DNA of 16,070 nt from a virus. Lineage: Duplodnaviria; Heunggongvirae; Uroviricota; Caudoviricetes. The stretch lies in IMG/VR virus record IMGVR_UViG_2713896787_000017; one strand, 5' to 3'. Below are positions 4,466-6,349 of the stretch, piece after piece. The notes beneath the pieces are model-generated. The model was not told the DNA's origin and did not search any database. It was given only the letters and a program-made list of their open reading frames with translations. The stretch's first letter is position 1. Every line of letters begins with the position of its first letter. The position numbers and the translations under genes are program-made.

Positions 4466-5088
4466 GGCACGGGCTGCTGGCGCTGATTTGCTGGCTGTGT
4501 TGTGTTGTTGCCCATAGCGAAATGCTGAATGTCGAACAATCCGGGCTGTTTCGCGCCTGGTTTGTACGCATTGCACAAGAACAGCTCCGCCAGGGGCCAA
4601 GTCCACGCTGGTATCAGCAGGATTGTGCGGGCCTGGTGCGATTTGCGGCGAACGAGACGCTGAAAGTTCACGATAGTAAATGGCTAAAAAGTAACGGTTT
4701 CTCTAGCCAGTATTTGCCGCCAGAGATGACGCTAACACCTGGACAGCGTCAACTGGCGCAAAACTGGAATCAGGGGAACGGGAAAACCGGCCCCTACGTG
4801 ACCGCGATTAATTTGATTCAGTACAACAGCCAGTTTATTGGCCAGGACATAAACCAGGCGCTGCCTGGCGATATGATTTTTTTCGATCAGGGCGATGCCC
4901 AGCACTTAATGGTCTGGATGGGGCGTTACGTCATCTACCACACCGGAAGCGCCACGAAAACTGACAACGGAATGCGCGCAGTCAGTCTGCAACAACTTAT
5001 GACATGGAAGTTGTATATTAAAAATTTCATTAATTATCAATATGTTAATGTGCGCTGGTCATTATTAATCAAAATAAAACCATTATGA
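4462..5088 (+). CDS. yfaT: YfaT-like protein (DUF1175 assignment from memory); last ~25 codons are encoded by prophage attL DNA
   Basis: ATG at 4462 overlaps the yfaA stop (ATGA), giving 208 aa. Synteny gyrA-yfaA-yfaT as in K-12. The 3' end beyond ~5010 is AT-rich and aligns with the lambda P' arm, so the C-terminus is reconstituted by phage sequence. Confidence 0.7.
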
Positions 5089-5090
5089 TA
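4993..5090. other. Prophage attL: core CAACTT-ATGACATGG-AAGTTG (4993-5013) plus lambda-like P' arm (5014-5090)
   Basis: 6+9+6 inverted-repeat core with the same geometry as lambda CAGCTT-TTTTATACT-AAGTTG. The 81 nt between the core and the conserved TTTCAATTTTGTCCCACTCCC block align without gaps to the lambda P' arm as I recall it (GGTCATTATTAATCAAAATAAAACCATTAT here vs GGTCACTATCAGTCAAAATAAAATCATTAT in lambda). Directly abuts the int stop. Confidence 0.6.
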
Positions 5091-6153
5091 TTTCAATTTT
5101 GTCCCACTCCCGCCCGCGACTGTCCCTGTAACGCGCCGCCATTGAATCTGATTTATGCCCGAGAAGACGTTGAGCAAACTTATCGCCAATCTGATTCCGG
5201 TATAGCCTCGCCGACAGGCTGCGCAGTTCATGGAATGTTGGCGGGTCTCCATCAAATGAGAGTCCAGATGCATTTCTCGCCTTTGTAAAATACTTAGATA
5301 CTGTTTTCGGGGAAAGCGGTTCGTGATGCGTTGATGCAATTATTGTTTCACTGCCGCTGGCCTCCCTGCATTTCTGTAGTGTATCAGCCAATGAGATATT
5401 GAGCGCGTCAATCGTTAGCGTCAGCGGAATGGCGAGCTTAGCCCCTGTTTTACCCTGCTCAATGTGAAGATGGTTGTCGTTTATGTCTGACCATTTCATT
5501 CTGCATAAATCGCCTACTCTCTGCCCTGTAACGACAGCCAAATCCATTGCCAGCCTCAGCCAGATTGGGAGCGGTTCGGCTGCATGGTAAATCGCGACAT
5601 ATTCATTAGCTGTCAGTCTTGAACGCCTTACTTCTGATTTTGCTGTGCGGGTTGCTGTTACCGGATTCGTAGCCACATGCCCCTCGGCTATTGCCTCACG
5701 AAAAACGTCAACAAGGGTTGACCTGATTAATTTTGCGGAAGCCGCTTTACCTTCTGCTACGTAGGTGTTTAGCATTGCTGCCACCTCTTTCGTTGATATG
5801 TCAGCGAGCGGTTTGTCCGGCAATTTTCTTCGGATTGCCCTGATTTTGCTGGCGTAGTCGAGTAGAGTTTTCGGCCTGATACCCCTCTCGCTGAGGATTG
5901 TTTCATATCGGTCAAGCCACGCATGAAGAGTGATTGCGTCAGCGCCTTTAATTCTGTCTATCAGTGACTCACGCCTGTTCCCGGATAGCAACTCAATATT
6001 GGCCTGTATTGCTTCAGTGATTGCTATCCTCCTGTCTCGGCCTAATCCGAACTCTTTACCCGTCCTTGGGTCCCTGTAGCAGTAATATCCATTGTTTCTT
6101 ATATAAAGGTTAGGGGGTAAATCCCGGCGCTCATGACTTCGCCTTCTTCCCAT
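5083..6153 (-). CDS. int: Lambda-family tyrosine integrase (356 aa)
   Basis: First ~55 residues ([55 protein letters not shown]) and the C-terminal catalytic region (...[11 protein letters not shown]...LLGHKSD...[14 protein letters not shown]) match lambda Int as I recall it, with substitutions between the arm-binding and catalytic domains. Same length as lambda Int. Confidence 0.96.
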
Positions 6154-6349
6154 TTCTGATCCTCTTCAAAAGGCTACTTGTTACTGGTCGATTTAAGTCA
6201 ACCTTTACCGCTGATTCGTGGAACAGATACTCTCTTCCATCCTTAACCGGAGGAGGGAATATCCTGCATTCGCGCACCCATCGACGAACTGTTTCAAGGC
6301 TTCTTGGGCGTCGCTGGCGTGCATTCCACTCCTGAAGTGTCAAGTACAT
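6131..6349 (-). CDS. xis: Excisionase (72 aa)
   Basis: Translation MYLTLQEWNARQRRPRSLETVRRWVRECRIFPPPVKDGREYLFHESAVKVDLNRP... is lambda Xis-like throughout; the 3' end overlaps the int start as in lambda. Confidence 0.94.
   Translation of the reverse strand: MYLTLQEWNARQRRPRSLETVRRWVRECRIFPPPVKDGREYLFHESAVKVDLNRPVTSSLLKRIRNGKKAKS

Follow-up and report, generated by a model that had tools for sequence, protein, structure and literature searches.

We analysed the integrase-excisionase (int-xis) region of a 16,070-nt stretch of DNA from a virus record (IMG/VR IMGVR_UViG_2713896787_000017; Caudoviricetes), and refer to the whole of this stretch as the window. Both genes lie on the minus strand, next to a phage attachment site (att) in the 3' part of the host gene yfaT. 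The two genes and the box that precedes them are:

5083..6153 (-): int, an intact 356-aa heterobivalent tyrosine integrase of the HK022 type (open reading frame (ORF) list, Pfam and alignments)
6131..6349 (-): xis, a 72-aa excisionase gene with a 23-nt overlap with int
6362..6375 (-): TTGC-N6-TTGC box (TTGCGTGTAATTGC), a short way upstream of the xis start (pattern match)

The window Int gives a full-length match to the lambda Int chains in the PDB (5j0n, 1z1g and 1z1b; E ~1e-180). Pfam assigns Int residues 1-68 to Arm-DNA-bind_1 (PF09003; E = 7e-29), residues 81-170 to a core-binding part (Phage_int_SAM_1/Phage_int_M, PF02899/PF22022) and residues 179-346 to the catalytic part (Phage_integrase, PF00589), in which the catalytic set is complete (R212, K235, H308, R311, H333 and Y342). 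Xis belongs to the Exc family (PF07825; E = 3.6e-41). An earlier note on this DNA, made from the letters and a list of ORFs, had called both genes and given their interval (5083-6349) exactly. The arm-binding, core-binding and catalytic domains, the att layout and the overlapping xis place the protein, by sequence, among the lambda-family heterobivalent integrases. A pseudogene reading of int was ruled out by its full length, its full set of catalytic residues and a ratio of non-synonymous to synonymous substitution rates (dN/dS) against HK022 of ~0.07 (0.009/0.124, Nei-Gojobori). The region is very probably the int-xis recombination module that a defective lambda-like prophage, inserted near the 3' end of yfaT, carries at its left attachment site, attL (B-O-P'), with an Int of the HK022 type.

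The attachment site at yfaT

The junction between host and phage DNA carries the following features, which were placed mainly by alignment with the attachment sites of HK022 and lambda:

4462..5088 (+): yfaT ORF (DUF1175/MagC), host sequence up to 5010 and phage P' arm DNA from there on
4993..4999 (+): core-type Int site B, CAACTTA, on the host side of attL, from gap-free alignment with the HK022 and lambda cores; also in the empty yfaT site
5000..5006 (+): 7-bp overlap TGACATG, register from alignment with HK022 ATCCTTT-AGGTGAA-TAAGTTG
5000-5010: 11-bp identity shared by attL, attR and attB, TGACATGGAAG (three sites compared)
5007..5013 (+): core-type Int site C', GAAGTTG, on the phage side; AAGTTG is unchanged across the window, lambda, HK022 and the Stx1a phages
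5035..5047 (+): predicted H'-like site for integration host factor (IHF), TATCAATATGTTA, aligned with a TTATCAA...TT segment
5056-5065 (+): arm-type site P'1, TGGTCATTAT, from gap-free alignment with the lambda and HK022 P' arms
5066-5075 (+): arm-type site P'2, TAATCAAAAT, from the same alignment
5077-5086 (+): arm-type site P'3, AAACCATTAT, overlapping the int stop codon, from the same gap-free alignment

The three sites that can be read around the core are:

attB (empty yfaT site, L004 ~2200): CAACTTA TGACATG GAAGGAC
attL (window): CAACTTA TGACATG GAAGTTG
attR (E. coli E2863, L005 ~37613): CTCCTTC TGACATG GAAGGAC

The core-type sites at yfaT are thus CTCCTTC (C), GAAGTTG (C'), CAACTTA (B) and GAAGGAC (B'). 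The phage site attP (CTCCTTCTGACATGGAAGTTG), rebuilt from attR and attL, is colinear with the attP of HK022 and of lambda but for one 1-bp gap between P1 and P'3, which sits on the P side. For the H' assignment, we take WATCAANNNNTTR as the IHF consensus and TTATCAA...TT as the position of H' in lambda. The stretch of lambda homologous to the P' arm sites is labelled in the lambda record as an Int binding site ('int 4').

In the earlier note the P' arm was described as conserved with that of lambda, and this holds only moderately: over 80 nt, 55 positions (69%) are identical to lambda (81% to HK022), and in the 31-bp block of arm sites, where 26 of 31 positions agree with lambda by manual count, each of the three sites is changed. 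The altered core overlap that it reported is there, TGACATG standing in place of the lambda TTTATAC. On the attR side, the P-arm stretch TGACAAAAAATTAGCGCAAGAAGA(C)AAAAATCACCTTGCGCTAATGCTCTG (L005 ~37425-37480) is essentially invariant across the window prophage, HK022 and lambda and includes the sib/tI region annotated in HK022, while other parts of the att arms are ~75-80% identical.

The insertion also alters the host gene. The last 24 native residues of YfaT are replaced by 25 unrelated residues encoded by the P' arm (208 aa as compared to 207 aa), the stop codon of the fusion ORF overlaps that of int, and the prophage splits yfaT from the alpha-2-macroglobulin gene that lies downstream. 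In a survey of prophages in enterobacteria, yfaT is listed as prophage-disrupted (PMC3603311).

As to the box upstream of xis, the TTGC-N6-TTGC pattern alone is not significant (2 matches vs 1.3 expected). Its assignment depends on its position, which is presumably that of the cII box of the pI promoter in lambda; a similar TTGC box in the record of phage 434 is annotated as 'pseudo-CII binding site'.

An integrase of the HK022 type

At the DNA level, the int-xis region is 99.4% identical to that of four Stx1a-converting phages (LC744181-LC744184), 96.9% identical to that of HK022 and of the related phages Gally, mEp235 and mEp506, and about 77% identical to that of lambda, 434 and HK97. The window Int has D99, P282, K283, K287 and R319, the residues found in HK022, together with R329 (read from the translation). 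We take the first five to be the published HK022 specificity residues (presumably the list of Dorgai, Yagil and Weisberg 1995); a literature search for 'E319R' together with HK022 found no paper. Five residues explain most of the difference in specificity between lambda and HK022 (PMC6007267, citing Yagil et al.). The HK022-type switches named in PMC10863862 include N99D and H329R, and N99 contacts a guanine of the core site (PMC10863862). The positions at which the window and HK022 Int proteins differ include 234, 261, 267, 275, 278 and 303, all of them in the catalytic domain.

Set against the lambda-specificity class (lambda, 434 and HK97), the window lacks the lambda specificity residues, and it also lacks the common core GCTTTTTTATACTAA of the gal-bio attB. 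A lambda-specificity Int changed by neutral drift agrees neither with the core sites nor with the specificity residues nor with the insertion site, and was ruled out. From the HK022 type, the window has the specificity residues and the core-site pattern (TCCTT-type C and B', ACTT-type B and C', a CTT triplet in each) but not the torS-torT site or the AGGTGAA overlap, and we read it as an HK022-type Int with a different att allele.

Divergence from lambda along Int and Xis

The spread of substitutions was judged by domain-level and binned statistics on the alignment of the window Int with lambda Int, and synonymous and non-synonymous estimates against lambda were made by the Nei-Gojobori method. 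The alignments with lambda and HK022 Int contain 86 and 8 differing positions, respectively. The 86 differences from lambda (of 356 positions; 75.8% identity overall and 71% over residues 56-356) spare the N-terminal end: none of the first 55 residues is substituted, as compared to 86 of the 301 that follow (Fisher p = 7e-8). Xis is identical to lambda Xis at 70 of 72 residues (GG is changed to SS at 57-58). The two statements of the earlier note that the arm-binding end of Int is lambda-like and that Xis is nearly identical to lambda's are thus borne out, the former with 100% identity over residues 1-55.

The note had further placed the substitutions in the central region of Int, quoting one segment of the window protein against a lambda segment (LFSGHKHKPLTARINSDNSVTLHSW). 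The lambda segment is correct and that of the window protein is a real hot spot, since 14 of the 19 residues at 56-74 are changed (p = 3e-5; permutation p = 0.003). Past residue 74, however, the substitutions are even to the C-terminus (chi-square over twelve 24-residue bins, p = 0.67), and identity to lambda is 75.2% in the core-binding domain (75-175) and 74.0% in the catalytic domain (176-356; Fisher p = 0.89), so a divergent middle says too little: all of Int past residue 55 is divergent. An even spread was what the note itself had named as the result that would speak against clustering in core-contacting regions, and in its strong form that claim falls for residues 75-356.

The substitution estimates against lambda, segment by segment, are as follows (pS is the proportion of synonymous differences):

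xis: dS 0.11, dN 0.012
int codons 1-34: zero synonymous and zero non-synonymous differences
int codons 35-55: pS 0.55, dN 0
int codons 56-74: pS 0.84 (saturated), dN 0.44
int codons 75-355: pS 0.77-0.86 (saturated), dN ~0.19

Read in this way, the protein is a mosaic. The estimates point to a recent common ancestry with lambda for xis and int codons 1-34, and to an old divergence for int codons 35-55, whose amino acids have been kept unchanged by strict purifying selection on the arm-binding domain. Codons 56-356 are an anciently diverged HK022-type segment with no recent adaptive cluster; because synonymous sites are saturated, the changes over Int 75-356 are those of an old divergence and not of a focused switch.

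A different account would make the mid-Int substitutions an adaptive cluster in core-contacting regions, by which a lambda Int was retuned to a new overlap. The hot spot at 56-74 is real, the overlap does differ from that of lambda, and D99, P282, K283, K287 and R319 stand at the known specificity positions (PMC6007267 for the count of five). Yet the divergence over 75-356 is even, with saturated synonymous sites. The N-terminal domain comprises residues 1-64 (PMC9791396), and residues 56-74 are the end of that domain plus the inter-domain linker that follows. The same part of the protein varies between integrases that use the same site: 8 of the 14 differences between HK022 Int and the Int of FDAARGOS_1253, both at torS, fall within residues 56-90. 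The variation at Int 56-74 has nothing to do with core choice.

One integrase type, three att cores

HK022 integrates between torS and torT (PMC6814406), and its attB in E. coli K-12 reads GCACTTT-AGGTGAA-AAAGGTT. The overlap AGGTGAA was found in every HK022-type phage read from the phage collection (HK022, Gally, H19J and 11KH263), and also in the Stx1a phages at torS, whose Int matches that of the window in 355 of 356 residues and whose junction is present in 194 genomes. A third core occurs in E. coli strain E2 (NZ_CP104509, L019 ~1480-1510), in which a prophage whose Int is 4 positions off the window's is flanked by mdtA and an ibs type I toxin gene. There attL reads GGCCTTA AATAAGG TAAGTTG and the empty site GGCCTTA AATAAGG AAAGGGT (L023), and 14 complete genomes carry this third-core junction. 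The HK022 core pattern is kept in all three alleles, with a CTT triplet in each core-type site; lambda and HK022 Int both require the CTT triplet in their core sites (bioRxiv 10.1101/2023.11.06.565760).

Because the same or a near-identical Int is used with TGACATG, AGGTGAA and AATAAGG, the substitutions in Int do not follow the overlap. The proposal in the earlier note that the mid-Int changes match the altered overlap fails on this point, since it is the same Int (355/356) that serves AGGTGAA at torS. For HK022 Int, the 7-bp overlap may moreover be arbitrary if both partners match, and is not a recognition element (PMC7736782). The account by which an adaptive cluster retuned a lambda Int is thus largely refuted here, and we give it very little credence. 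What stands of the note's natural specificity switch on a lambda scaffold is the combination of lambda-type arm binding with a core specificity other than lambda's; this is the known case of HK022, not a new one.

Could the window Int instead have evolved, for yfaT, a core specificity that is neither lambda's nor HK022's? No characterised HK022-type phage integrates at yfaT, Int differs from HK022 Int at 8 positions, and the core sites differ as well (C is CTCCTTC as compared to ATCCTTT in HK022, with 2 differences, and C' is GAAGTTG as compared to TAAGTTG, with 1 difference). The Stx1a phages at torS, however, encode the same Int but for the last residue or two, and for this reason none of the 8 differences from HK022 is specific to yfaT; the core sites at yfaT also keep the HK022 signature (CCTT in C/B' and ACTT in B/C'). 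New protein specificity for yfaT was ruled out by the presence of the same protein at torS, and we consider a separately evolved specificity highly improbable.

We prefer to read the window as an HK022-type Int with a different att allele, and retargeting within the HK022-type group appears to come from a change of att DNA alone, which fits the published promiscuity of HK022 Int towards the overlap. On the int side, the window and the torS phages cease to be similar at the last two codons and the stop codon of int. We think it reasonably probable that HK022-type int/att modules form a natural allelic series, in which one Int serves at least three sites (torS-torT, yfaT and ibs-mdtA) and is retargeted only by att DNA (the overlap plus tolerated core-site variation), with the swap joint on the int side in the last two int codons.

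As to where a new overlap comes from, the 'saf' route, reportedly described by Weisberg et al. in 1983, is said to pass a new overlap to the phage when integration at a secondary site is followed by excision. We infer that the overlap at yfaT may have originated by such secondary-site integration and excision. The divergence of ~20% along both arms shows that something more than a single event of this kind separates the att of the window from that of HK022.

If the allelic series is real, it would mirror in nature the promiscuity towards the overlap that has been engineered with HK022 Int, and would exemplify how temperate phages may reach new sites without evolving the enzyme. In comparative terms, the occurrence of one HK022-type Int with three att cores at three loci supports the idea that overlap identity plus loose core-site rules, and not a change of integrase, decide the landing site, and it gives users of HK022 Int in genome engineering natural att pairs.

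Proposed working of the module

We infer from these features that the window Int recombines the yfaT att sites. Its N-terminal domain would bind P'1 to P'3, plus P1 and P2 at the other end of the prophage, and IHF would bend the arms. The core-binding and catalytic domains, with their predicted HK022-type specificity, would bind C/C' and B/B' and exchange strands across TGACATG, and Xis, together with IHF, would redirect the complex to excision. The use of yfaT instead of torS-torT would be set by the att DNA and not by the protein.

Prophage context, distribution and decay

To the left of int the window contains gyrA (1..2628), yfaA (2729..4465) and yfaT. In about 5,400 complete E. coli genomes the match to the window stops at position 5010, and attL through the junction into int is found in 176 of 5,426. 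Positions 1..7088 of the window are identical to E. coli E2863, a Japanese bovine isolate, in which a 16.9-kb remnant with Q, lysis genes, IS1203 copies, nleG and nleA has int-xis at its left end. The remnant, with the P arm at attR, runs up to a 3' yfaT fragment, after which comes the alpha-2-macroglobulin gene. The exact Int protein occurs in thousands of assemblies, and in 10 of the 10 contexts listed (including the O111:H- strain 11128) it adjoins yfaT/yfaA/gyrA.

A fuller form of the prophage is found in CFSAN027346, where Int and Xis proteins identical to those of the window, again at yfaT, head a near-complete lambda-like prophage of more than 49 kb (its right end is beyond the stretch read) with exo, bet, gam, kil, cIII, cI, cro, cII, O, P, nin, Q, lysis, head and tail genes, followed by nleG and nleA. 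The window derives from a CFSAN027346-type prophage by a deletion of about 11 kb, with the joint at ~6905/6908. The deleted stretch begins with a DUF4222 gene, takes in exo, bet, gam, kil, cIII, cI, cro, cII, O, P and ren, and reaches to ninB and dam; the deletion puts a 114-aa ORF beside xis directly before ninE.

Several observations weigh against a working module at this locus. With cI, cII, N, exo and bet missing, the window prophage has lost the regulators for expression of int and xis, which are probably silent in it unless another resident lambdoid prophage supplies regulators in trans. Each P' arm site is changed relative to HK022 and lambda, which could weaken arm binding. The yfaT prophages examined have common cargo (nleA and nleG) and may go back to one ancient insertion, since decayed in place, rather than to repeated integration. 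Searches for an unintegrated attP (POP') gave zero matches in IMG/VR viral contigs (with CTCCTTCTGACATGGAAGTTGTATA and the shorter CTGACATGGAAGTTGTATATT) and in JGI metagenome contigs (with CTGACATGGAAGTTGTATATT), and an att-agnostic sequence (TGACATGGAAGTTGTATATT) had zero matches in GTDB species-representative genomes. The phage collection contained no attP match above ~80% over most of the length (the best were Gally with 80.1% and HK022 with 77.9%), and four further records matched at 90-95%. With no free attP and no close attP match in a phage, these searches give no direct sign of a phage that is free and active.

These points can be taken further, to a fossil junction at which the module is intact in sequence but inactive and the prophage has become a domesticated or locked-in effector island, an account that is compatible with our reading on gene identity. 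The loss of ~11 kb (among others exo, bet, cIII, cI, cro, cII, O and P), the reduction of the E2863 copy to a remnant with IS1203 copies, the shared cargo and the lack of a free attP in the viral, metagenome and species-representative collections all fit it. Full-length Int and Xis, an identical protein in thousands of assemblies, the low dN/dS against HK022 and the retention of core and arms at both attL and attR argue the other way. Strains of enterohaemorrhagic E. coli (EHEC) carry other lambdoid prophages, which could supply the regulators in trans. We regard the fossil account as plausible though not the probable one.

Other observations concern the neighbourhood. O157-type genomes carry a frameshifted int pseudogene, ~85.6% identical, between nleA and nleH/nleF (strain 472, L021 1564-2558), and the int search returned 331 records within the 80-90% identity band; this suggests a related, decayed int beside the same effector cargo at another locus. 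Between ninE and HNH/ninG, the window has two ORFs with no Pfam hit on record, and other yfaT prophages have a single 590-aa gene in their place, so that the slot looks like a variable cargo (moron) slot:

7706-8533 (-): ORF of 275 aa
8572-9558 (-): ORF of 328 aa

We note that the window has N runs at 7088-7138 and 10840-10890 and single Ns at 14737 and 14800. The real stretches in E2863 differ in length from the N runs that replace them, and coordinates to the right of 7088 are therefore offset relative to the real genome.

Comparison with known systems

An Int of the HK022 type is already well studied (HK022 Int, Xis and att were reportedly the subject of Yagil et al. in 1989), and lambda and HK022 are the classic natural specificity switch, so the protein itself is nothing new. 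The one mildly new point is that one Int type serves a series of att alleles; otherwise the module is ordinary for E. coli.

HK022 and the window are alike in the lambda-identical arm-binding end, the specificity residues, the int-xis overlap, the core-site pattern, the layout of attP (P1, P2, core, H' and P'1-3) and the TTGC-N6-TTGC box upstream of xis. HK022 Int differs from the window Int at 8 residue positions (about 98% identity) and HK022 Xis is identical at 71 of 72 residues. The C-terminus of Int reads EIS* in the window and EIDK* in HK022, the att arms of the window element are ~78-81% identical to those of HK022, and HK022 sits at torS-torT with the overlap AGGTGAA whereas the window element lies inside yfaT with TGACATG.

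The Stx1a phages LC744181-LC744184 are closest in protein, with an Int identical over residues 1-355 that ends in EIDK* as compared to EIS* in the window. Their att module, in contrast, is HK022-like, with the overlap AGGTGAA and torS as host flank, and their P' arm is 75% identical to that of the window.

Lambda shares with the window the domain architecture, the mechanism class, the arm-type sites and, in the P arm, the sib/tI stretch, and differs from it in Int residues 99, 282, 283, 287, 319 and 329, in the core sites, in the overlap and in its gal-bio attB.

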